From: Parcubacteria group bacterium
GTDB lineage: Bacteria > Patescibacteriota > Minisyncoccia > JACPHC01
Assembly: GCA_016188775.1 (NCBI GenBank)
Contig: JACPHC010000004.1
Span: 12,704 to 76,703, forward strand
Length of the DNA: 64,000 nt
Reading direction: 5' to 3'
Positions 1 to 35,715 of this stretch are shown here, in pieces; positions within the stretch are counted from its first letter, which is position 1, and every line of letters starts with the position of its first letter. The notes under the pieces were generated by a model that saw only the letters and a program-made list of their open reading frames with translations, searched no databases and was not told the DNA's origin. The position numbers and the translations under genes are program-made.

Positions 1-170
1 AATTTTAGACTGACATAGATTATAGGTTTGATATAATCAAAATAAGAAGCGGGATAACTCGTAAATTATGGGTTCTCCGTGTGTCGCAAAAAGATCTTCT
101 TGCAAAAGAGGGTCTTTTTGTTTCGGATAGAATTTTTAATTTTCTTGCGCCTCGCGGGCAATAATCAAAA

Positions 171-758
171 TTACTTCTCTCCTTGCATCGTGAATGACCC
201 GCCCTGGTAAAACGCTGTCCAGACCCATTTTTTCGCTTCTTTGGCGTAGTAGAACTTAAATTCGGAAAGGAGGCTAGGCGCCCCTCCTGCTGATTGATAC
301 AGACCGGCCGCGACCGCGTCGCTGTTGATTAAAACGCCTTTAAAAACTTGAGCAAAAGTGTCTTTTTTCTCGCTAGCGTCCCTGATTTCCCCGTTTTTGA
401 CCAAAACCGCGTAGCTCTTTTTAGCGGACGGCGAATAGAAAACCACGTTCCAGCCCGAAGCCCGGCCGTCTTTGGCGATTTCTCTGGAATCAAGAGTGAT
501 TAAAGCCAAAGTCGCGTCTTTTTGCCAAATAATGGCCGCGGGCAAAGCCAGTCGAAAGGCTTCGTCTGCCAAAAGATTGGAAACGACAGCCGGGCCGCCG
601 GGAATAATAATCCCCTGTCCGCCGCCGATTTGGGCCTGTTTTTGAACTTGGGCTTTGCCGATAAAAAACGCGGCCACTCCGGCGATCAAGGCGACGATGA
701 CTAAACTGATAAGAAAAGTTTGCTCGGAATATTTTTTTTCTTCTATTTTTTCTTCCAT
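171..758 (-). CDS. hypothetical membrane-anchored protein (single N-terminal TM helix)
   Basis: 195-aa ORF with a hydrophobic N-terminal segment (LISLVIVALIAGVAAFFI). No recognisable catalytic motif. Confidence 0.5.
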   Translation of the reverse strand: MEEKIEEKKYSEQTFLISLVIVALIAGVAAFFIGKAQVQKQAQIGGGQGIIIPGGPAVVSNLLADEAFRLALPAAIIWQKDATLALITLDSREIAKDGRASGWNVVFYSPSAKKSYAVLVKNGEIRDASEKKDTFAQVFKGVLINSDAVAAGLYQSAGGAPSLLSEFKFYYAKEAKKWVWTAFYQGGSFTMQGEK

Positions 759-925
759 AAATTGAACTAGAATCTAGAAGCTAGTAACTAGAATCTAGAA
801 GCCAGTAAAATAAATATAAATAAATTATTAATTGTTAAGAAAATTGTTAAGAATTTTCATTACTTTAGATAATAAGTTTTCGACCTTTTTTATTATAGCA
901 ATTAAATTCTGCCATGCGCTTATTT

Positions 926-1002
926 TGTCATTGCGAGCCGAAGGCGAAGCAATCTCAATCGTTTAGAGATTGCTTCGGCGATTTCATCGCCTCGCAATGA
1001 CA
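926..1002. repeat. MITE-like foldback repeat, copy 1 (termini TGTCATTGCGAG / CTCGCAATGACA, inner GAAGCAATCTC / GAGATTGCTTC)
   Basis: Nested inverted repeats read directly. Same element recurs at 14680-14758, 22058-22142, 38011-38099 and 48288-48379. Confidence 0.8.
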
Positions 1003-1020
1003 TCGGATTTTTTTCTATCC

Positions 1021-4000
1021 TTACGGCGTGTAGCTGTAAGTCAATATGATTTTAGCGTTAAGAAGATAGACTGTTGAACCAGTGGCCGTGGGAGAGACGT
1101 GAAGCGTGTATTCTTTGGTGGTGTTGGAAACGCCATTTAAGTCAGTCACGGTTTCGCAAGCGTTGCAGGCTTGAGGAGAAGCGGTGAAAACACTGGTGGC
1201 GTCGTAGAGCAGTTTGAAAGGCAGAGCCGAGGCTGGAGAAGAGAAAGTGAACTGGGCTCCCGGATAAGCTCCATAGCCGGTCGCGCCAAGATTGCCTCTT
1301 TTTAATTTAAGATCCATAGTCTGATTGGTTCCGCCTTGGGTGGTGCCGTTGATTTCAATGGCCGCGGATTTAATTTGAATATTATTTTCCGGAATGCGAA
1401 TTCGGAATTTTTTGGTAATGGCCGGAGTGGCAATGGGAGTGGCAATGGGAGAGGTGGGATTCTTTTCCTGGAAGATAAAGAATTCAACTGTTTTGGAAGG
1501 ACTGGTAGTTCCAGTGGTCAAGGAACAGAAAGGAGTGGCTGAAGGATTGAGGGCCGGACCGTTGTTGGCGCTGTCTTTGGCTGAAACTCTGAAAAAGTAT
1601 TGAGTGGAAGCGGTCAGATTTAAAAGATTAATGGTTTTAGTAAGACCAGCCTCGTTTTCAGGAATGGAAAGCATTGATGAAAGAGCATTGGGAGTGGTTA
1701 AAGAGGAATCAGTATCATACTCAATTTGGGCCGAGATTGGATAAGAATTAGCCAGATCAGAGGCGTTGAATGAAATGTTGGCTGTGGAAGCGGTAACTCC
1801 GCTATAAGCGGTGCCGCAACTGCCGCCATTTAAATTGACAACAGGCGGAGTGGTATCAACCATAAAATCAGCCGATGTTTCAGGATTGCCGCCAAATGAA
1901 ACCCAATTGGAAAGAGTGTTATTGGTCCCGCCGACAGTATCGGACCTGACTCGGGCTTGCCAGTGATAGGAGGTGCCGGAGACAAGACCGGAAACCGTCA
2001 CTTGGCCGGTGGCTGTTCCGGTTGTCCAGAGAACTCCGGTTCCTTCAACAATACCTGTTCCGTCAAAAGCTTGAGCAATGGGTTTAACTTCCACTTGAGG
2101 ATAATAGGTTTGATTGGTTTTGCCTCCGGCCATAGACATTTTGAAAATAACCGAGGATTCATTAGTGGACCCAGCAGTGGTAATGGCGGTGGAGCCGTCA
2201 GTTCGGTACTGATTAAGAGCGGTCGGGTCAATTGGTTTAGCGTCCAGAACAGTGAAAGGAGAATAACTGCCTGAACCAACTGAATTAGAAGCCACGACTG
2301 TCCAATTGCCTAAAAGTTTGTCAGTCAAATCAAAACCGCAGCCGGTCATTGAAGTGGAGCTGGCAAAAGCGCAAGCCGGGGAACTTAAAATATCGGTTTG
2401 ACTGGTCGTAGCCAATTTAACCAAAGTGTCAGCGGTGAAATTAGCGCCAGTGATAGAGACGCTGGAGATTGTTCCGTTATCAAAACCGGAAGAAGGAGAA
2501 ACGGAAGTGACAACCGGGGCAGTGGCTCGGACTTCAAAGCCGGTAGTTGAACCGTCTCCGAATTCTCCGATTTGGGTGTCTTGATTAGTCACTCGAGCTT
2601 TATAAAAACCGAGGGAAGCCGCGTTTAAATTAAAAGTGCCGGTAATGGAAGTGTAAGCGGTATTTATAGTTACGCTCGCGCCGGGGATGGCGAGAACGCC
2701 GGAACAATTATCGGTTAAACATTTAACGTATTTTAAATCATTCGTTGCCAATACTCCATTATTCGTTTCTTTATAAGCAATTTTTGCCAATCCGTCCGTG
2801 GAATCTAAAACTAAAGAAGCGAAACTGCCGGTAAAAGCATCAGTATCGCATCCTGAAAGAGTACAACCCGTATCGCCATCAAGAGTTTTTACAACTCCCG
2901 CGGAACAATTGGCGTCATTGCATCGAGCAAATCTCAATGATGATTCAGTCGAATATTTATAATAAGCAATCGCGGGATATTGATTTGAATCTAAAATCAA
3001 AGAAGGAGTATCATTAGGGCTTAAAATAGCCGTGCTTGTAGTGCAGCCGGATAAAACGCATCCGGCAATACCGTCAAGATTTACAACCGTTGCTCCGGTG
3101 CAGGCTGTGTTTGGACAACGAATATATCTAAGAGGATTGATTGAAACAATTCTGGCAAGATTATCAGAACCTAAAGCCATTGATGAATTATTTGATGAAC
3201 TGATGTCCGTAGAAACTCCGACCGCGCAATTGGCGTCAGAGCAACTGATAAATCTATTATCGAAAACAACTCTTCCAAAATCGTCTGCCGGATTTAAGGC
3301 AAGCGATATAGAATTAGCATTATAGCCAGCTCCGCAGCCGGTTAACGCGCAGCCTGTTCCGCTAATTGGCGTAATAATTCCTGAAGCGCAATTAATATCG
3401 GCGCATTTGGCATACTTAACCTGAGAAGTGGCGGGGTCTCCGTAAACAATCCTGGGAAATCCATCAGATCCAACGGCTATGGATGTAAACCGCCCCGAAT
3501 CTCCAGTGGCGCAATTAGTTAAAACACATCCGGTGTTGCCGTCAAGAAGATTCATTACGCCGGTTGAGCAATCTAAATCAGCGCAGCGAATAAATTTAAG
3601 ATCTAAATTTGAATCTTGATAAGCAATTCTGGCAAAACCGTCGGCGGAACCTATGGCAATCGAAGGATAACTGCCCGCCGCTGTTAACGTGCTGCATCCC
3701 GTAATTTTACAATTGGATCCGCCGTCAAGAGTCCTAATAATTCCGGCGCTGCAATTACTATTAGCGCAGCGAATATATTTAAGAAAACCAGCGCCACTAG
3801 CGGGACTATCGTTTTGATAAACTATTCTTGAAAATCCGTCTTGGCCTAAAATATTTTTAATATAGCTCCCCTGATTATTAGCAGTAAAGATTTCAACTGC
3901 GTTCCTAACAACGCTAACGCAATCTATGTCAACGCAACGAATATAATTCAAGTGTGGCGAAGATCCTATTGGATTAACTACAAACACAACTCTTAAAAAA

Positions 4001-6711
4001 TTACCAGAACCAAACGCAAGCTCCGCAACGCTCATAGGATTAGAGGCGTAAGTTAGAACGCCGCCAGAAATATTACCGGTAAATACTCCGGCGGAGCAAT
4101 CTTCGGCTGAACAATGAAAATATTTTAAAGGAAAAGGAGAAGCGTTGGCTAGACGATAAACAATTCTGGCAAAACCGTCGTCGGAACCTTTAATGCCGCG
4201 TATATTGGTTATGCTTAAAGCGCCGGTGTCGCATCCCGTTATAACGCAAGAAGGTCCATCAACCACTGTTATAGCGCCAGTCGAGCAATTTAAATCCGAA
4301 CATTTAGCGTATCTAAGATTAGAATTGGTAGAATCCAGATAGCTTATTCGGGCAAACCCATCATTGGCAATAAAAATAGAATTATATACTCCCGGGTCGC
4401 TCGTTGTACTGCAGCCGATTAAACCGCAGCCAGTCTCGCCGTCTATTTTTTGAACAAGACCGCTAGCGCAATCTAGATGAGTGCAGTTGATATATCTCAA
4501 TCCTGTTTCTCCTCCTCCCGTTGTAAAAATAATTTTTCCAAAATCATTTGAAGCAAGAGCAAATGACGGATTTCCCGCGCCATTCCCGGTGGAAACACTG
4601 CAGTCAGTTAACACGCACCCCGACCCCGCGACACTTGTTATAACGCCTGAAGAGCAACCAATATCAAAACAACGACTAAAATTAATGCTGCTAGAGCCAG
4701 TCCTTCTATTATGAACAATTCTGGCAAAACCGTCGGAACCTTTAATTATAGAGGTGAAACTTGTGCCATTTGCGCCATTTGTTGCGCAATTGGTTAAGAC
4801 GCAACCCGTAACGCCATCAAGAATGGCAACTGTGCCGGTTGAGCAATCTAAATCAGCGCAATGAGCATATTTTAAAATTCCAGATGTATAGGATGTATAA
4901 CTAATCATTGCAAATCCATTATTATCAAGAGTTATGGAATTGTAATGGCCTGTATTTTCAGCGGTATTGCAGCCGGTTAAAACGCAACCCGTTCCGCCAT
5001 CTAAAAGAGCGGCGGTATAGTCAGTGCAGTCTATATTTTTACATCTGACATATTTAAGATCGCCATTGGTGTCATCTCTATAACTTATTCGGGCAAATCC
5101 ATCAGTGGCAAATATTGTAAGCGATGGCGTCGCTAATATTTTACCGCTACCACTATTTTCACAGTCAGTTAATAAACAGCCGGTATTTCCATCTAAAAGA
5201 TTAACCGTACCTTCGGCGATCGTCTTCCTCAACTCCATCTTGGGCTTATTATTAACCATATCATCCGTGTCAATTCCGGCGCCGTTAAAAGTAATAGATT
5301 TGGCCGTTTCATTGTTAATTCCAAAAGTCGGAGCCACGCTGGTGACAGTTGGAGCGAAAATGGTAAAAGAACGGGTATTGGAAGTACCAGTGATTGGAGT
5401 GGAACGGGAAACAGAAATGGTTCCGGTGATGTTGGTTGATCCTTCCTGTCCCGGCACTCGGACGGCGATACAAGTATTAGTGTAAGCCGAGCCAGCGCAT
5501 TTGGTTGAGCCGGTAATTTGGGTGGCGGCTGAAGCGTTAATGGTAATAGCCCCAGCGGTTCCAAAATGATCTCCATTTAAAGCAATGACTTTGCCGATTT
5601 GATCATCCGGAGTCGTGTCTATTTGACCCGGACCTTCGATTGTTCCGGCATCATCAGCAATAGAGCAAAGACGGGGCAGAATCGTGAAAGCGAAATTAGA
5701 TGATTGGCCGGAAACAGTGACTGTGATGTTTCCGGAAATTCCGGCGTCAGAGGGAATCGCGGTGGTTATAGCCGCGTCAGTCCAATTAGTGGTTGGAGAA
5801 ACAACGATATTAGCGGAGCCATTGATGGTTAAAGTTGAAGCGTCTTGAGTGGCGCCGAAACCAGCGCCGTTGATTGAGATAGTGTCTGATTGTCTGGCTG
5901 AAGCAATACCGCTAGCAATGGATGAACCAGTCGGACAAGTAGTTTCGGCTCCAGCCTCGGTCAAGTCAACTGTTGTAATAGCCGGTCCGACGGAAAAATC
6001 CGGCGTTGTCATTTTCGTCCGGTCAGCGTCAGCCAGTTCCGAGCCTTCAACAATAAAATTGAGAGTTCGGCCGGAACTTACAACAGTGTTATGATCCCAA
6101 ACTTCAAGATAAAGATATTCGTTGGCTAAAGTAAAAGGGCCGACGGAAGAAGAGGCGGTGTTGATGGTGGAGGCGCCTCCGGTCCACCAATCAACGGCGG
6201 TCGGATCATGAGAGAAAAGAAGAACCGCTCCGGTTAAAGAAGTGTCCTGGGGAACTCGAAAAACCTGGAAGGCCGGATGAGAGGTGACGTTGGCTCTGTT
6301 GTCGGTTTTTCTGACATTGAAAGTCCAGGTTCCGGCGGCGAAAGTGCCGGACATTTGGGCGTTGGAAAACCAGCCGTAGGGTTGAGGCGTGGCTCCCGGA
6401 GTGCCGGTGGTAGTGCTTGTAACTCCCGGCCTGATAACGGTTTGGACAGCGGAAGCCGGAGAAGTAATAGCTGATGTGGTGTTTGAAGCTTGATCCGGAA
6501 CAGTTCCGTCTCTCATTATCCAAGTTCCGGCCATTCCGGAAACTTCCTGATGAAGATAAAAAGTTTTGACAGCGGCGTTAGCTGAATTTTTCTCAACGCT
6601 CACCTGCGGCGGGTTTTTGGATAAATCCAAAAAGACATCATAGGGAACCGCTGTCCCTAAAATGGATAAAGATAAAATTACGACCAGAGATAGTTTTTTA
6701 AAATAGTTCAT
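1021..6711 (-). CDS. giant secreted surface protein (1896 aa) with about 14 Cys-rich ~60-aa repeats, FN3-like and IPT/TIG-like domains
   Basis: N-terminal signal-like peptide MNYFKKLSLVVILSLSILGTA. Repeats of pattern LDGxTGCVLTxC...DGFARIxY...LKYxxCxDxDCSxG. FN3-like stretches (TSYHWQARVRS, TQYFFRVSAKDS). IPT/TIG-like (PVVTSVSPSSGFDNGTISSVSITGANF). Confidence 0.8.
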   Translation of the reverse strand: MNYFKKLSLVVILSLSILGTAVPYDVFLDLSKNPPQVSVEKNSANAAVKTFYLHQEVSGMAGTWIMRDGTVPDQASNTTSAITSPASAVQTVIRPGVTSTTTGTPGATPQPYGWFSNAQMSGTFAAGTWTFNVRKTDNRANVTSHPAFQVFRVPQDTSLTGAVLLFSHDPTAVDWWTGGASTINTASSSVGPFTLANEYLYLEVWDHNTVVSSGRTLNFIVEGSELADADRTKMTTPDFSVGPAITTVDLTEAGAETTCPTGSSIASGIASARQSDTISINGAGFGATQDASTLTINGSANIVVSPTTNWTDAAITTAIPSDAGISGNITVTVSGQSSNFAFTILPRLCSIADDAGTIEGPGQIDTTPDDQIGKVIALNGDHFGTAGAITINASAATQITGSTKCAGSAYTNTCIAVRVPGQEGSTNITGTISVSRSTPITGTSNTRSFTIFAPTVTSVAPTFGINNETAKSITFNGAGIDTDDMVNNKPKMELRKTIAEGTVNLLDGNTGCLLTDCENSGSGKILATPSLTIFATDGFARISYRDDTNGDLKYVRCKNIDCTDYTAALLDGGTGCVLTGCNTAENTGHYNSITLDNNGFAMISYTSYTSGILKYAHCADLDCSTGTVAILDGVTGCVLTNCATNGANGTSFTSIIKGSDGFARIVHNRRTGSSSINFSRCFDIGCSSGVITSVAGSGCVLTDCSVSTGNGAGNPSFALASNDFGKIIFTTGGGETGLRYINCTHLDCASGLVQKIDGETGCGLIGCSTTSDPGVYNSIFIANDGFARISYLDSTNSNLRYAKCSDLNCSTGAITVVDGPSCVITGCDTGALSITNIRGIKGSDDGFARIVYRLANASPFPLKYFHCSAEDCSAGVFTGNISGGVLTYASNPMSVAELAFGSGNFLRVVFVVNPIGSSPHLNYIRCVDIDCVSVVRNAVEIFTANNQGSYIKNILGQDGFSRIVYQNDSPASGAGFLKYIRCANSNCSAGIIRTLDGGSNCKITGCSTLTAAGSYPSIAIGSADGFARIAYQDSNLDLKFIRCADLDCSTGVMNLLDGNTGCVLTNCATGDSGRFTSIAVGSDGFPRIVYGDPATSQVKYAKCADINCASGIITPISGTGCALTGCGAGYNANSISLALNPADDFGRVVFDNRFISCSDANCAVGVSTDISSSNNSSMALGSDNLARIVSINPLRYIRCPNTACTGATVVNLDGIAGCVLSGCTTSTAILSPNDTPSLILDSNQYPAIAYYKYSTESSLRFARCNDANCSAGVVKTLDGDTGCTLSGCDTDAFTGSFASLVLDSTDGLAKIAYKETNNGVLATNDLKYVKCLTDNCSGVLAIPGASVTINTAYTSITGTFNLNAASLGFYKARVTNQDTQIGEFGDGSTTGFEVRATAPVVTSVSPSSGFDNGTISSVSITGANFTADTLVKLATTSQTDILSSPACAFASSTSMTGCGFDLTDKLLGNWTVVASNSVGSGSYSPFTVLDAKPIDPTALNQYRTDGSTAITTAGSTNESSVIFKMSMAGGKTNQTYYPQVEVKPIAQAFDGTGIVEGTGVLWTTGTATGQVTVSGLVSGTSYHWQARVRSDTVGGTNNTLSNWVSFGGNPETSADFMVDTTPPVVNLNGGSCGTAYSGVTASTANISFNASDLANSYPISAQIEYDTDSSLTTPNALSSMLSIPENEAGLTKTINLLNLTASTQYFFRVSAKDSANNGPALNPSATPFCSLTTGTTSPSKTVEFFIFQEKNPTSPIATPIATPAITKKFRIRIPENNIQIKSAAIEINGTTQGGTNQTMDLKLKRGNLGATGYGAYPGAQFTFSSPASALPFKLLYDATSVFTASPQACNACETVTDLNGVSNTTKEYTLHVSPTATGSTVYLLNAKIILTYSYTP

Positions 6712-31251: not shown

Positions 31252-31270
31252 TCCCAGTTCGAATCTCACC
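31252..31270 (+). other. tRNA 3-prime-end-like fragment (AGTTCGAATCTCACC identical to the T-arm/acceptor of the tRNA-Ser at 35526-35615, opposite orientation)
   Basis: 15-nt exact match read directly. The surrounding sequence does not fold as a full tRNA. Confidence 0.4.
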
Positions 31271-31323
31271 ACTAATCAATAATCCAAATAAATATACTTT
31301 TACAAAGTATATTTATTTGGATT

Positions 31324-31617
31324 GGCGGTGAAATTATATCCTTTGCGCGAACCTTTTTCGAGGGACGATGACCCGACCAGCCGCCCGCCTCCGCTAACGC
31401 TCCGGCGGCAACCTCGCAGAAAAATATCCTCCGCCTTCTTGATTTTGCGCGCGCCCGATTTTTTCTTCTAAAAAGGAAGAGGATATTTTTCTGCTCGGTT
31501 CCGCCCTCCAAGTATTCGGGCGGAGCGGCGGGGCTTCTGCGCTCGGGCGCGGCAGAATTCCCCCCACCCCCCTTCCGCCGCGCCCGAGCTTCCACGGCGA
31601 AAATTTTTTGCGGCTAA
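31324..31617. repeat. GC-rich inverted repeat, left copy (IR-L, ~290 bp with an ~85-bp insertion relative to IR-R)
   Basis: The reverse complement of 31341-31617 aligns near-identically with 33797-34021 (e.g. GGCGCGCGCAAAATCAA..GCGGAGGATATTTTTCTGCGAGGTTGCCGCCGGAGCGTTAGCGGAGGCGGGCGG). Confidence 0.85.
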
Positions 31618-32231
31618 TTGATTTTTACAAAATAACAAAGCCAGTTTGTTTTTCGTTCGTCATCCTCGACATGCGTACTCATTTTTAGCACAGAAAACCC
31701 ATTTTGCTCAAGTAGATTTTTGAACTCATCTTGAGTGTAGAACGAAAAATACCGACTGATTCCGCCATATTTATTTTCGTTTATCATTCCTTCGTCCATT
31801 CCGTTTTTCTCTTTGACCGAGATAAAACCGACGCCGCCGTTTTTGATAATTCGTTTTGTTTCCTGCAAAACTCCAACAACATCTTTTTTGGGTATGTGTA
31901 AAAAACTAGCGGCTGCCCAAAATCCGTCAAATTCTCCGTCTTGGAAAGTGGTTTTGCTAAAATCCATTTTTTGAAATTTTCCTTTTGGCACTCTCTCGCT
32001 TGCCACCCTTAACATTCCTTCGGAAGCGTCTATACCCGTATAATCAAAACCATTTTCCACAAAAACGGCAGCGTCTCGTCCGGCTCCGCAACCGAGGTCA
32101 ATAACTTTTTTTCCGTTAATAATACTTTTGTAAAAATCAAATTCTTCAACCCGAAAATGAGCGAAATGACCTGCGCTATAGTCGGGAGCGATTTTGTCAT
32201 ATGTTTCTGCTGTTTTCTGTTTGATGTCCAT
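31614..32231 (-). CDS. class I SAM-dependent methyltransferase
   Basis: Motif I VIDLGCGAGRDAAVF. 205 aa. Confidence 0.8.
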   Translation of the reverse strand: MDIKQKTAETYDKIAPDYSAGHFAHFRVEEFDFYKSIINGKKVIDLGCGAGRDAAVFVENGFDYTGIDASEGMLRVASERVPKGKFQKMDFSKTTFQDGEFDGFWAAASFLHIPKKDVVGVLQETKRIIKNGGVGFISVKEKNGMDEGMINENKYGGISRYFSFYTQDEFKNLLEQNGFSVLKMSTHVEDDERKTNWLCYFVKIN

Positions 32232-32233
32232 AA

Positions 32234-32509
32234 TTATTTTTCTTTTGTCTCAAATTGTATAATTTGGAAGCCATATTTTTCTACTGCTTCCGGCGACCAA
32301 AAAGTTTGGCCTTTGGTTTTGAGAATATAGGTGGCGATAACTTCAACTTTTCTTCCAGTATATTCTTTTTTGTCTTTGTCCCACTCCTCTAAAACCAAAG
32401 TGTCGCCTTCGTTTACTTCAAAATCTGCAAGACGCAGTTCCAGCTTTTTCTTGCCGGAAATAATTTTCTCAAAATATTCTCGCCAAACTTTTTTACGAAT
32501 TGTTGCCAT
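32234..32509 (-). CDS. DUF3850 / ASCH-like (PUA-fold) small protein
   Basis: VWREYFEKIISGKKKLELRLADFEVNEGDTLVLEEWD...YTGRKVEVIATYI matches the DUF3850 pattern. Confidence 0.5.
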   Translation of the reverse strand: MATIRKKVWREYFEKIISGKKKLELRLADFEVNEGDTLVLEEWDKDKKEYTGRKVEVIATYILKTKGQTFWSPEAVEKYGFQIIQFETKEK

Positions 32510-32511
32510 AG

Positions 32512-33057
32512 TTATTTTACTTCATAATCCCATCCCGGTCTCCATGCCTTAGTTTTTCGCCAATCTTCCGCAAACGCATCTTCCCATGTTTTACCCTTGA
32601 GCAAAACATCAAGCGCGAGTTGCGGGGCTTTATGGGCAACTATGGCAACGCTTTTGCCGTCGTAATTCTGTTTTAGAAAATCGAGAAAGTCAGCAATTCG
32701 TGTTTTTACATCCTCATAACTTTCGCCATCAGGAAATTTTTCGATTATCGCTTTTTCTTGCATTGGTTCAACAATACTCGACGGCTTAGCATTGTATTTG
32801 CCATAGTTGCATTCCCGTAATCTCGCGTCAGGAATAATCGGCACAATTCCCTCAAATGTCAGTTTTGCGGAATCAATGGCTCGCTTCAAATCAGAGCAAA
32901 ATACAATATCAAATTTTTTGTCTTTGATTTTATCTCTCAAATCAATGGATTGTTTTACTCCCAATTCTGAAAGCCCAACATCAAACCAACCGGAGGAAAT
33001 TTCTTTCTCATTATCCGTTGTCGTGCCGTGGACAAAATAAGTAATCTTGATTGCCAT
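32512..33057 (-). CDS. histidine phosphatase superfamily (phosphoglycerate-mutase-like) protein, RHG motif variant VHG
   Basis: YFVHGTTTDNE...GLSELGVKQ...SDLKRAIDSA...IVAHKAP parallels branch-1 histidine phosphatases. Confidence 0.55.
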   Translation of the reverse strand: MAIKITYFVHGTTTDNEKEISSGWFDVGLSELGVKQSIDLRDKIKDKKFDIVFCSDLKRAIDSAKLTFEGIVPIIPDARLRECNYGKYNAKPSSIVEPMQEKAIIEKFPDGESYEDVKTRIADFLDFLKQNYDGKSVAIVAHKAPQLALDVLLKGKTWEDAFAEDWRKTKAWRPGWDYEVK

Positions 33058-33061
33058 AAAT

Positions 33062-33523
33062 TTATTTAATCATCCCGCCGTGTACCAAACAGCGATAAAC
33101 AACTTTTCCACCAAAAGAAATTTCCTCTTTACCGGAAAAATTTGCAAGGTTGCCATCAGCAACAAAACGATACTCTTTGTCGTCGGCGAAAAAGTTGCTT
33201 GGTCCTCGCACTGGAATTACATCATTGTATTCTTGCATGAGTGCTTTTCGGAGGAAATCATATACATCTTTCTCGCTCACTTTTTCATCTAGGACAAAGC
33301 CGAAATAATTTGCACCCCAAATTGGTTTCTCATTTTCGTATACGATTTCCTCGCCGATAAAGTCGCGCCCGCCAAAATAAGTGTCGTGGTAAATTAGCCT
33401 GTCTTTTTCAAAATGATAATCCTCCGATTTTAGACGGGATGGCGCGACTTTTGGAGCGTCTTTATTAGCGTAAGTTGTCTTGTTCATCTCATTAAGAAAC
33501 TTTGTTAGTGTTTGAAGATTCAT
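33062..33523 (-). CDS. conserved hypothetical protein (153 aa)
   Basis: ORF tightly packed in the operon (5-bp gap to the HTH gene). No motif recognised with confidence. Confidence 0.5.
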   Translation of the reverse strand: MNLQTLTKFLNEMNKTTYANKDAPKVAPSRLKSEDYHFEKDRLIYHDTYFGGRDFIGEEIVYENEKPIWGANYFGFVLDEKVSEKDVYDFLRKALMQEYNDVIPVRGPSNFFADDKEYRFVADGNLANFSGKEEISFGGKVVYRCLVHGGMIK

Positions 33524-33528
33524 AAAAT

Positions 33529-33732
33529 TTATTTAATTAAATCCTCAATCGCGACATCAAGGGCTTTCGCAATTTTGCTCACTACAAAGACAGATGGCTT
33601 CTTGATAACACCTGTTTCAATTTTGGTTAGGGTCGTATAAGGTACATCAGCCTTACGAGCAAAATCATCTTGCGAAAGCTCTAATTTCTGTCGCAATTTC
33701 CTTATTTTCTGTCCCAGTTGATTACTTTCCAT
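33529..33732 (-). CDS. XRE-family helix-turn-helix transcriptional regulator
   Basis: LGQKIRKLRQKLELSQDDFARKADVPYTTLTKIETG is a classic Cro/C1 HTH. Confidence 0.85.
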   Translation of the reverse strand: MESNQLGQKIRKLRQKLELSQDDFARKADVPYTTLTKIETGVIKKPSVFVVSKIAKALDVAIEDLIK

Positions 33733-33796
33733 ATATTGATAACATATAACTGTTGCTATATTTCGGAGACAATATTATACTAACAGATATGAGGAC

Positions 33797-34037
33797 TTTC
33801 TTCAATGTAGCCGCAAAAAATTTTCGCCGTGGGAGCGAGGGCGCGGCGGAAGGGGGGTGTGGGGGGAAAAGTTTTCTTTTCCTTTTAGAAGAAAAAATTC
33901 GGCGCGCGCAAAATCAAAAAAGCGGAGGATATTTTTCTGCGAGGTTGCCGCCGGAGCGTTAGCGGAGGCGGGCGGCGGGGCGATTCAGTCCGTTCTTCGT
34001 TCGAAAAAGGTTCGCGCAAAGGTTAATACATCACCGC
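33797..34037. repeat. GC-rich inverted repeat, right copy (IR-R)
   Basis: See IR-L. The outer ends share CCTTTGCGCGAACC / GGTTCGCGCAAAGG. Confidence 0.85.
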
Positions 34038-34069
34038 CTTCGCCTCGCAGTAGCTCGGCTTCGGCGTGA

Positions 34070-35525
34070 CGCAGTCCGCAGAAGACGAGCGAAGGCGGGG
34101 GAATAAAATCAACGGAAGATGACGACCGACAAGTAATGTCTATTGAAGCGCAACTTTTTGAACTGCGAGAATACGCGCGTAAAGAAAATCTTGAAATTCT
34201 GGAGGAATTTCAAGAGTCGAAAAGCGCAAAGACACCCGGACGAGAAATCTTCGGCGAGATGATGGCGAAAATAGAAAGTGATGGAGATTTTGGCATACTC
34301 GCGTGGCACCCCGATCGCCTTGCGCGTAATAGTATTGACGGAGGACGCATTATCTACACCGTAGATCAGAAGAAAATAGTGTCTTTGCGTTTTCCGACAT
34401 TTTGGTTTGAACCAACCCCGCAGGGGCTCTTTATGTTGCAAGTGGCGTTCGGATGCGTCGTAAAGAATGGCTGGGACTTGCGCCTTTCGGATACCAAAAC
34501 AATCCACTTATTCGTAATATTGAACCGCACCCGACCGAAGCGCGTATTGTTAAATTAGCGTTTGAGGAATATGCGAAAGGCGTACACTCTTTTGTTTCTC
34601 TCGCGCAATTTTTGGCGGACCTCGGCGTTGTCTCAAAAAATAGAATGCCACTTGCCAAAGCTTCCATCAAACGACTTTTAACGAACAGAGCATATCTCGG
34701 CTTTTTGAAACACAAAGGAGAATGGTTTGATGGAAACTTTGAACCAATTCTTTCTCCCGCATTGTTTGAAGCCGTGCAGAAAATTTTGAAAACGAAAGAG
34801 CGGCCGCGCCACCGCCGCGCTCGGCACGATTTCCCATTTACCGGATTATTCCGGTGTGCCGAGTGCGGCTCAATGATTAGCGCGCAATGGGCGGTCAATC
34901 GCTGGGGTACAAAATATCGCTACTATCGCTGTTCAAAAAAGCGCGGCCGCTGTCCGCAACCATATATTCAAGAGGCGGAGTTGGCGCGGCAAATCAAGGC
35001 ACGGCTTCAAACAATCTCGCTTTGCGACAATCTCACCGATTGGATGTTGGAAAAAGTAAAAAGTTGGGAGCACGAGGAAATCGGAGCGTCGCAAAGCGAG
35101 GTTCAAAATCTTTCCGAAAATATTAAAACGGCAGAAGCGAGGATGGAAAAGCTGGTTTCCACTTATCTTGATGGCGACATTCCCAAACAAACTTATCTCA
35201 AAAAGAAAGATGAAATTTTACTCGCTTCTGCCGTTTTGGAGCAAAGGAAAAAAGATTTTGAAAACGGGAGAAAAAATTGGGTCGAACCCCTGCGGGAATG
35301 GATTTTAGATACGAAACAGGCCGATTTTTTGAGCACATCGAATGATTTTCACCAAATCAAAACATTTGTTCAAAAAATCGGAACGAACCCTCGGGTTCGT
35401 AACAAATCCGCCGTCTTTGATTTTTGCCCAGCCAGCCAGTTCGCCGCGAAGCGGCGAGGGATTTTGCGGAGCGCGGCCGCCTCGCGGCCGCGCGGAGCAA
35501 CCCTTTCAAATCGTGAAGTTTCTAT
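34070..35525 (+). pseudogene. large serine recombinase: frameshifted, without an in-frame start codon, and with a degenerate catalytic motif
   Basis: Resolvase-domain remnant (IKSTEDDDRQVMSIEAQ...DRLARN) with no start codon upstream. Frame shift near 34440-34460. Recombinase plus zinc-ribbon domain (FRCAECGSMIS...YYRCSKKRGRCPQP) in the second frame. The track ORF runs on through the tRNA only because no stop codon intervenes. Confidence 0.7.
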
Positions 35526-35615
35526 TGGCGGAGGCGGTGAGATTCGAACTCACGATGCCCTTTCGGACATACTTGCTTTCCAAGCAAGCGCACTAGGCCG
35601 CTATGCGACGCCTCC
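35526..35615 (-). tRNA. tRNA-Ser (anticodon GGA), class II with long variable arm, CCA encoded
   Basis: rc sequence GGAGGCG-TC-GCATAGCGGCCTAGTGCG-CTTGC-TTGGAAA-GCAAG-TATGTCCGAAAGGGCATC-GTGAG-TTCGAAT-CTCAC-CGCCTCC-G-CCA folds as a cloverleaf. Confidence 0.85.
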
Positions 35616-35715
35616 AATAGATTGGATTATATAGTTTAAAATCGGGAAAATCAAACGATATCAGTATTACATATTGATATTTTTTTTGTTATAATAAATA
35701 TAATCAATAAAAAAC

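Follow-up and report, generated by a model that had tools for sequence, protein, structure and literature searches.

The integrative elements moved by large serine recombinases (LSRs), among them A118 and those with phiC31-type integrases, SCCmec Ccr, XisF, or TnpX/TndX, combine a Resolvase-Recombinase-zinc-ribbon architecture with a short attL/attR core, no long direct repeats, and site-specific insertion. We found the same combination in an island of ~4.2 kb at positions 31323 to 35531 of a 64,000-nucleotide (nt) stretch of DNA from a Parcubacteria group bacterium (GenBank assembly GCA_016188775.1, contig JACPHC010000004.1, positions 12,704 to 76,703 of the forward strand); this whole stretch is called the window below. 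The island lies at the CCA end of a tRNA-Ser gene, has an adjoining LSR pseudogene, and contains two inverted repeat arms around a short operon. We think it likely that the arms are two copies of one P-side arm (B and B') of the island's attachment (att) site at the tRNA-Ser gene. This confidence covers the identity of the arms and of the island together; the role of the internal mirror copy of the site is much less certain. Judged from sequence, the family to which the island belongs belongs, broadly defined, to the LSR integrative elements: its recombinases have resolvase, recombinase, and zinc-ribbon domains, and its attL and attR are hybrid half-sites that share only a short core.

Unlike known LSR elements, the family targets the CCA end of tRNA genes, and between the recombinase and the cargo it has a second, complete, inverted attP with flanks of 80 to 390 nt. 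The elements are also tiny (3 to 10 kb), with one recombinase, one regulator, and cargo, and they have no evident recombination directionality factor. The literature searched, the coverage of which was incomplete, did not describe any LSR element in which an inverted attP lies inside.

Two other described systems come close. Tycheposons are, like members of the island family, small islands at tRNA genes that form tandem arrays, leave remnants, and turn over their cargo on a conserved integration module. The tycheposon study, in Prochlorococcus and marine bacteria, reported 937 integrase-carrying elements, 501 of which are tycheposons; 910 of the 937 encode tyrosine recombinases. Tycheposons are defined by a tyrosine recombinase lineage of their own (or a minority LSR) and by shared replication hallmark genes; replication modules are present in many of them, direct partial tRNAs serve as their flanking repeats, and neither an internal inverted attachment site nor an operon headed by an XRE regulator was described (bioRxiv 10.1101/2020.12.28.424599). 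The island family differs from them in holding only an LSR, an XRE regulator, and cargo, without replication genes, and in having short cores as its repeats. The second system is mobile restriction-modification (R-M) units. R-M genes have been linked to integrases at tRNA genes and have been found within inverted repeats; the inverted repeat-flanked units have 26- to 65-bp terminal repeats and 8-bp target duplications, and the units at tRNA genes have direct repeats (Furuta, Abe & Kobayashi 2010, PMC2853133). The island family is likewise rich in R-M genes and headed by a controller-like helix-turn-helix (HTH) protein, but the R-M units lack the pair of one split and one intact, mirrored att site.

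The inverted arms and the island in the window

A sequence-only reading of the window had described near-identical, GC-rich inverted repeats at positions 31324 to 31617 and 33797 to 34037. The repeat is real and lies at those positions. A repeat search of the window joined 31324 to 31617 with 33797 to 34038 through three collinear inverted blocks, namely, 31324-31368/33994-34038 (45 nt, 82% identity), 31369-31478/33878-33987 (110 nt, 91% identity), and 31560-31616/33808-33864 (57 nt, 93% identity). When the window was searched against itself with blastn, the arm pair was recovered with E values of 8e-51 and 7e-20, and there was no third copy of the arm sequence in the 64 kb. The arms are reverse complements, but "near-identical" was too strong for an overall identity of ~88%. 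Their high GC content was borne out, with values of 0.588 for the left arm and 0.531 for the right arm versus 0.385 for the enclosed genes and 0.414 for the window (59% and 53% versus ~41%). The nested hairpins that had been described are present in the left arm (31410-31440/31470-31500 and 31541-31557/31573-31589). The arms do differ in length, but the difference had been ascribed to an insertion in the left arm; since relatives (L126, L043, and L120; loci of relatives are given by L numbers) have the segment in their corresponding arms, the change is instead a deletion of ~72 to 81 nt from the right arm, which took half of the hairpin that we call hairpin 1 plus the neighboring hairpins. Five tightly packed minus-strand genes lie between the arms, whose inner ends adjoin the operon as described: the inner tip of the left arm includes the TAG stop codon of a methyltransferase gene, and 64 nt separate the end of the right arm from the start of an XRE gene downstream. 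The layout is not a standard insertion sequence (IS) architecture, no IS match was found, and the proposal that the repeats belong to a mobile element is supported.

The evidence that identifies the arms is in the junctions. The last 6 nt of the tRNA-Ser(GGA) gene (35526 to 35615, minus strand), the integration target, are CCGCCA (35526 to 35531), the attL core. The comparison of three junctions places the identical sequence, read on the minus strand, at 31323 to 31328; this is the attR core. In the sense of the tRNA, attL reads ...tctcaccgcct/CCGCCA/ATAGAAACTTCACG... and attR reads ...GGTTCGCGCAAAGGATATAATTTCA/CCGCCA/, followed by a perfect hairpin. The P' arm of attL (arm A, ATAGAAACTTCACGATTTG...; 35476 to 35525, minus strand) is homologous to the A arms of L021, the closest recombinase relative, and of L098. 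The left inverted repeat arm (31324 to 31617, minus strand), which is the full-length version, is B' and lies on the P side of attR. Within it are the P half-site GGTTCGCGCAAAGG..., hairpin 1 (31541 to 31589, loop CCCCCCACCCCCC), and a 31-nt hairpin (31410 to 31500), and its inner tip, TAGCCGC, provides the stop codon of the methyltransferase. The right arm (33797 to 34032, plus strand) is B, the P-side arm of an internal, inverted att copy, and it runs into an internal core, ACCGCC (34033 to 34038, plus strand; register CCGCC), which is inverted relative to the attL and attR cores. At this internal site the P arm and CCGCC have been kept, and the A' side has been replaced: unrelated GC-rich filler (34039 to 34105) stands in place of the A' arm, the recombinase promoter, and approximately the first 10 codons of the recombinase. 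No relatives of the filler were found by blastn, and a resemblance to flanks in L087 and L050 that had been seen by eye was rejected when blastn gave no match.

The hairpin that directly follows the attR core (31281 to 31322, minus strand) is AT rich, with 20 bp that are 100% complementary. In our interpretation it was once the terminator of the tRNA-Ser gene, and the insertion has moved it 4.2 kb away (as host flank b' of attR); in L051, L032, L095, and L120, attR is likewise followed by a terminator-like hairpin. The predicted empty-site junction for the window reads ...TCTCACCGCCTCCGCCAATCCAAATAAATATAC....

Two further observations concern this target site. Just past the displaced hairpin, at 31256 to 31272 (plus strand), is a 15-nt exact copy of the T-loop and 3' T-stem of tRNA-Ser (AGTTCGAATCTCACC, then AC), inverted relative to the tRNA-Ser gene (blastn E value of ~0.04 window-wide). 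No tRNA was predicted at 31256 to 31272; the copy may be what is left of a convergent tRNA or an earlier integration event. On the other side of the island, two Logan contigs (L093 and L094) that carry the right-hand neighbor gene (737 amino acids [aa]; BACON and PG_binding domains; window position ~35586 onward) end inside the tRNA-Ser gene, which points to branching of the assembly graph where the island integrated, caused either by shared tRNA sequence or by a mixture of occupied and empty sites.

The recombinase pseudogene (34106 to 35525, plus strand) begins ~100 bp to the right of the right arm. Its fragments match the Resolvase (PF00239, 1.8e-13), Recombinase (PF07508, 6.2e-15), and Zn_ribbon_recom (PF13408, 1.4e-12) domains. 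It is truncated at its 5' end, with no start codon ahead of the catalytic KSTEDD, a stop 22 codons before it, and the Y-x-R residues lost; it is also frameshifted at about 34390 to 34453, where a tblastn alignment with the intact L021 protein changes frame. Intact LSRs in relatives are 452 to 545 aa long, and that of L083 matches the A118 integrase (4KIS) at 6.7e-7. The window copy is a dead, degenerate member of its family: in addition to the damage to its LSR, it has lost A' and 72 nt of the internal arm, and its two arms are now only ~88% identical. Recombinase frames in the family often have no stop before the core and run through it into the antisense of the tRNA (34453 to 35634, plus strand, in the window; 7897 to 9495 in L035; 8048 to 9685 in L021), so the C-terminal tail of the protein would differ between the integrated and excised states.

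Mirrored attachment sites and orientation in relatives

The 67-aa XRE protein of the window was found unchanged on 21 other contigs, where it heads different cargo (HNH, GrpB/SET, glycosyltransferase, NUDIX, APH, and others). That these proteins have no amino acid changes partly reflects the look-up, which retrieves exact protein matches only; the DNA encoding XRE on these contigs is 84% to 93% identical. An XRE-anchored scan of one genome per species gave 129 relatives at 73% to 96% amino acid identity, and a metagenome scan gave at least 296 more. The family is spread over many classes of Patescibacteria and is also present in Omnitrophota, Marinimicrobia, and Peregrinibacteria. An intact copy (L083; NZ_QPJS01000004.1), with a 480-aa LSR and B arms that are 100% identical, lies at tRNA-Ser(GCT) in a cultured isolate, Schleiferia thermophila DSM 21410. 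Because IMG/VR holds two weak relatives only, we conclude that the element is not phage borne.

Intact elements have the order tRNA, core-A, LSR (oriented towards the tRNA), A'-core'-B, XRE and cargo, B'-core, and host flank. Arm A is 78 to 140 nt and arm B' is 86 to 487 nt long; A/A' and B/B' are inverted repeat pairs, and A' abuts B with an overlap of 4 to 6 nt. We extracted the three junctions in 12 loci. In each, attL is tRNA-core-A, attR is B'-core-host flank, and the reverse complement of the internal junction is B'-core-A, identical over at least 40 nt on each side. The full mirrored pattern occurs in at least 18 loci (these 12, plus at least 6 more from the metagenome scan), including the cultured isolate. 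The internal joint between the recombinase and XRE is a complete, inverted attP-type site, and what look like two inverted repeat pairs are one 200- to 600-bp repeat, one copy of which is split by integration while the other is intact. Because the internal joint is an inverted copy of the joined ends, both transcription units lie within an inverted repeat pair of their own. The three junctions of the window fit this pattern, with ...cct of the tRNA side, CCGCCA, and P' at one end and P, CCGCCA, and the terminator at the other.

The cores are the 3' ends of tRNA genes (CCACCA, CCGCCA, TCACCA, GGAGCCA, CAGCCA, and GCACCAG), and the targets are tRNA-Ala, -Ser, -Glu, -Gln, -Leu, -Met, and -Asn, and one tRNA that contains an intron. 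In the last case (L001, 7834 to 8159) a group I intron (Rfam RF00028, 76 bits) interrupts the gene, which goes undetected by ARAGORN; in agreement with L001, a recent report described such introns in tRNAs of Patescibacteria (PMC13011429). The L035 element lies within a tRNA cluster (L035, 12202 to 13078), with four more tRNA genes within 1 kb past attR, so that the insertion splits a tRNA array.

Not all members of the family have the full layout. There are simple LSR-XRE-cargo units without the internal joint (L058, L019, and the second unit of L043), recombinase-less cassettes with A and A' joined directly into a palindrome (L095 and the first unit of L043), reduced tRNA-A-XRE islands (L081, L074, L069, and others, and L064 with 23-nt direct tRNA repeats), and chains of units at one tRNA (L088, L098, L107, and L114). 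L098 also has a collapsed palindromic junction: at 4677 to 4784, two cargo cassettes without XRE are split by a single palindrome of ~110 nt, consisting of the inner-tip motif, hairpin 1, and the inverted inner-tip motif. This palindrome, which looks like an attC site, is probably what remained when a larger palindromic junction of tandem elements collapsed. In L083 (9840 to 9906), and also in L087, L088, L086, L067, and L070, three abutting blocks of 20 to 28 nt lie between arm B and the XRE promoter. They are 100% inverted copies of pieces of the recombinase segment (codons 45 to 52, C-terminal coding sequence next to arm A, and the 5' leader), and a fourth block, 32 to 37 nt from the N-terminal region of the recombinase, lies just inside B'. 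These blocks would turn into direct repeats if the recombinase segment flipped. Together with the structure of L081-type islands, they suggest inversion-plus-deletion events in the history of the family.

The sequence-only reading had offered the arms as the ends of a foldback element and had predicted the same repeats around different cargo. The prediction came true, and the same arm family surrounds many different cargos. If the arms were the terminal inverted repeats of a nonautonomous cassette that moves as a unit, one could also explain why short-read contigs start and stop in arms (L003 to L005, L100, L115, L165, and L173) and why arm-bracketed, recombinase-less cassettes exist (L098 in addition to the two named above). 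However, only the left arm is terminal, on the attR side; in full elements the other arm lies inside the element, and a second repeat pair with the same core encloses the recombinase segment. The arms are not flanked by a target-site duplication, their outer ends are inverted copies of the core at the tRNA 3' end, and the recombinase-less cassettes are still located at tRNA ends with a core-palindrome-core' structure, as a two-attP element minus its recombinase segment would give. A transposon of this kind is therefore improbable, and we return to the arms as parts of an attachment site.

The orientation of the segments bears on a second alternative, an invertible, phase-variable segment in which the adjacent serine recombinase flips the five genes between the arms, as do Gin, Cin, and Hin. 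A repeat-segment-repeat arrangement with a recombinase gene ~100 bp away matches the classical invertase layout, and the switches of Mu (G/gin), P1 (C/cin, with 0.6-kb repeats), and Salmonella (hin) also have a serine-family recombinase gene beside a segment flanked by inverted repeats. One recombinase-less cassette, L150, is opposite in orientation to its relatives: it carries the same cassette as L043, L118, and L120 (83% to 95% identical), with its cargo end facing tRNA-Met. L150 is compatible with use of the second attP copy as well as with a rare inversion by homologous recombination. Against a switch, the recombinase was upstream and divergent of XRE, so that the XRE end faces it, in 33 of the 33 loci with both genes adjacent (21, plus 12 from the metagenome scan); none of these loci had a flipped recombinase segment or cargo segment, and inversion or excision of the 2.2-kb segment by itself, suggested for the window, was not seen. 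At least nine further contigs that start in B and pass B' carry no recombinase downstream. Consensus assemblies show the majority orientation, and low-frequency flipping would escape them. In addition, the enzyme is an LSR, not a small invertase of ~190 aa with a C-terminal HTH, and none of the enhancers, Fis, ~26-bp crossover sites, or paired orientations of the invertase switches were found. With its promoter inside, the segment could flip without switching expression. The ends of the repeats fall on integration cores derived from tRNA genes, and the recombinase of the window is a pseudogene. A Gin/Cin-type switch is not supported, and we consider an invertible segment very improbable.

The same counts apply to an analogy with larger genomes. 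Class E herpesvirus genomes and the yeast 2-micron plasmid also have two unique segments, each within inverted repeats; the internal joint of the herpesviruses is an inverted copy of their fused termini, and the 2-micron repeats hold the recombinase target. Both isomerize freely, with four or two isomers. The likeness to the island family is architectural only, for the family has a single isomer in all 33 loci and is unrelated in sequence or enzyme. A 2-micron-type flip-flop is not supported, and routine free use of both attP copies was rejected along with it because no recombinase-bearing locus had the other isomers. Two loci that might have been taken as evidence of inversion were set aside. 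L032 is not a flipped isomer but a remnant that has lost its recombinase. L126 is a 4.5-kb metagenome contig that forms, from 1 to 4563, a perfect hairpin, with 1526-nt arms at 100% identity around XRE and cargo; it is most likely an assembler fold-back at the repeat, and mixed orientations in the population are also possible.

Arm hairpins, regulator, and cargo

Each arm is a series of hairpins whose loops are conserved and whose stems vary but stay complementary. In hairpin 1, 112 of 117 stem pairs were Watson-Crick across 11 stem variants, and every position showed two or three pair types. (Pairs were counted by script; a MAFFT alignment was not used, because gaps in it put the pairing out of register.) The loop, TTCCTCCCCAGACCCCTCC, is a mirror repeat of pyrimidines that hardly varies, and within the window the hairpin 1 motif occurs in the two arms only. 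The loop (31558 to 31572 and 33854 to 33868 in the window) reads as the homopyrimidine/homopurine mirror repeat CCTCCCC-AGA-CCCCTCC and holds two pentamers that resemble Shine-Dalgarno or anti-Shine-Dalgarno sequences; with the G-rich stems, it may have the potential to form a triplex, an i-motif, or a G-quadruplex.

The two B arms of an element evolve in concert: they differ at 8 to 39 fixed sites between related elements and at 0 to 5 sites within one element. In the comparisons of L035 with L037 and of L086 with L087, there were 39 fixed differences each and none within an element. The A arms are less well homogenized.

An inverted pair of structured noncoding RNA (ncRNA) genes, or long structured untranslated regions beside the operon, had been the other explanation proposed for the arms. 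The arms are GC rich in an AT-rich genome, hairpin 1 has compensatory changes at every stem position around an invariant loop, other hairpins have conserved loops, and the left arm folds better than shuffled sequences (z of about −4). These are properties of structured RNA, but palindromes can also be kept at the DNA level. The right arm, with its deletion, folds no better than shuffles (z = −0.4 and −0.9), and relative to the operon the loop strand is C rich in some lineages and G rich in others. The arms always end in recombination cores and half-sites. At the gathering score, Rfam 15 gave no match to the arms, finding only tRNAs and the one group I intron in the window and 10 relatives, and permissive scans were at chance level. 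We hold ncRNA genes to be very improbable. A simple scan of the arms for promoters and terminators gave nothing above chance.

Upstream of the operon, between the right arm and XRE, is a unique sequence, TATCTGTTAGTATAAT ... GCAACAGTTA (33733 to 33796, minus strand), which is 78% to 100% identical across loci and which we take as a putative promoter and operator region. A conserved inverted motif, TCTGTTAG...CAACAG, flanks the −10 region there and is a candidate operator; controller proteins of R-M systems bind palindromic C-boxes in front of their own gene and time the expression of the genes after it. The XRE/HTH_3 regulator itself (33529 to 33732, minus strand; 67 aa) heads the cargo operon. 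Across phyla it is 73% to 100% identical and is far more conserved than its recombinase; for example, L035 has 90% identity to the window in XRE versus 30% in the C-terminal part of the recombinase. XRE matches the PADLOC profiles Control_protein (1.9e-10) and capH (1.2e-10), and its best matches among solved structures are generic XRE/SinR/Cro proteins. In its profile and its place at the head of the operon, it resembles the controller (C) protein of an R-M system.

The four cargo genes of the window, all on the minus strand, encode a 153-aa DUF5680 protein (33062 to 33523; PF18931, 1.5e-30), which starts 5 nt after the XRE stop codon; a 181-aa member of the histidine phosphatase superfamily (32512 to 33057; His_Phos_1, 1.9e-28); a 91-aa DUF3850/ASCH-like protein (32234 to 32509; PF12961, 3.7e-17); and a 205-aa class I S-adenosylmethionine-dependent methyltransferase (31614 to 32231; Methyltransf_25, 5e-19), which scores under every NCBIfam cutoff. 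No recognized defense or R-M system was found in this cargo by profile scans that included PADLOC and NCBIfam. The cargo of relatives is rich in R-M and defense genes. Many of 70 cargo proteins are DNA methyltransferases, restriction endonucleases (CfrBI, DpnII, TdeIII, and Mrr), HNH nucleases, or Z1, DUF4420, and AbiEii-like ATPases.

Cargo is codirectional with XRE and has a coding density of ~95%. The first gene starts 2 to 5 nt past the XRE stop codon, and the last ends 0 to 18 nt before, or at, the TAG of the inner-tip TAGCCGC. Backbones that are 83% to 94% identical carry unrelated cargo; homology ends at the XRE stop codon and resumes 0 to 76 nt before B'. (L001 and L002 had seemed to be a cargo swap at one site, but they are the same element, 98.8% identical over 2.5 kb; the evidence for swapping comes from other pairs.) A conserved promoter platform with tightly trimmed, swappable, codirectional cargo bounded by palindromes is also found in integrons. 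Integrons use a tyrosine recombinase, IntI, and folded single-strand attC sites, with one cassette per attC; the island family, in contrast, has an LSR, and its cargo breakpoints are in XRE and B', not at recombination cores.

Mechanism and the role of the internal mirror copy

We propose that the LSR would recombine the attP of an excised circle with the 3' end of the tRNA gene inside the shared core of 4 to 7 nt. Integration would rebuild the tRNA gene and push its terminator to the far end of the island. XRE would act as controller or repressor from its place in front of the cargo operon, which is promoter proximal and translationally tight, and cargo would be swapped between elements by homologous recombination in the conserved XRE and B' sequences. 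The arm hairpins might act while single stranded or extruded, most simply as bidirectional terminators or insulators around the cargo, and gene conversion between the two arm copies would keep them identical. The internal mirror attP would give the excised circle two opposed attP sites. Recombinase-less elements are found in both orientations, whereas recombinase-bearing ones persist in one only.

Two simpler schemes were rejected. Two inverted full sites could make up a duplex attP from one strand, folded as in CTX phage and integron attC; this was set aside because serine recombinases cut all four strands in concert, and a hairpin attP would leave hairpin-capped chromosome ends. The joint also cannot be derived from one conservative recombination between att sites; when the combinations were worked through by hand, no pair gave an inverted attP, and so a duplication or capture event is needed.

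Tentatively, the internal mirror attP in its long, hairpin-rich arms, which are kept identical, may be a functional device of a previously undescribed class of LSR elements. The device might allow orientation-independent insertion and the exchange of modules or cassettes, as a natural counterpart of recombinase-mediated cassette exchange. Each module would be bracketed by recombination-competent repeats, and R-M, defense, and accessory operons would spread under a pan-phylum controller, among Patescibacteria as well.

Several points weigh against this proposal and the scheme above. Free use of both attP copies predicts two orientations among recombinase-bearing elements, and all 33 had one. 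The joint is dispensable in the family, as the simple relatives exist without it. Neither an empty site nor an excised circle nor a circular attP junction was recovered among 80 metagenome loci or in IMG/VR; a search for the empty site by way of the flanking proteins found no records for the left one and, for the right one, only the contigs that break inside the tRNA. Because of this, we infer integration and excision from anatomy alone. Most of the data are metagenome assemblies, and long inverted repeats can mislead assemblers, as was probably the case for L126. Finally, a role for the hairpins as terminators or insulators is weakly supported, given the chance-level scan, and would leave the conservation of the loops unexplained.

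The internal mirror copy could instead have no function. It might be a frozen by-product, for example, of the capture of a recombinase-plus-attP module in inverted orientation inside a cargo island, that survives since inverted duplicates, unlike direct ones, resist deletion by recombination. The identity of the arms as att arms would be unchanged. The existence of simple relatives without the joint is in keeping with such an origin, as are the three exact recombinase-segment blocks that recur inverted beside the joint in L083-type elements. L081 reads tRNA-core-A-hairpin-block-XRE, as inversion plus deletion between blocks would give, and palindromic junctions have been caught collapsing (L098 and the right arm of the window). 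However, subfamilies that diverged deeply and use different tRNA targets have the joint at the same place and in the same orientation, with a core that always matches the ends, and the B arms evolve in strict concert. Because the position and core of the joint are constant and the B arms concerted, long-term maintenance is favored over repeated accident. We regard a functionless copy as rather unlikely but nearly as probable as the functional device, which is itself less likely than not.

The mirrored att layout, which combines strict concerted evolution with a fixed isomer, is a piece of unexplained recombination biology. If our identification of the arms and the island is correct, recurrent contig breaks and GC-rich repeats in metagenome-assembled genomes of Patescibacteria and other groups would be explained as the arms of one family, which would aid annotation and binning. 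The family would also provide a natural set of compact LSRs with defined attP/attB pairs at tRNA ends (Ala, Ser, Glu, Gln, Leu, Met, and Asn). Because the element carries its own intact attP, its sites could be read from one integrated genome without comparison to an empty site, which would be useful for recombinase mining and genome engineering. For its hosts, the family would be a compact vehicle for R-M, defense, and accessory operons under a near-invariant controller, including in lineages in which gene exchange is poorly understood.

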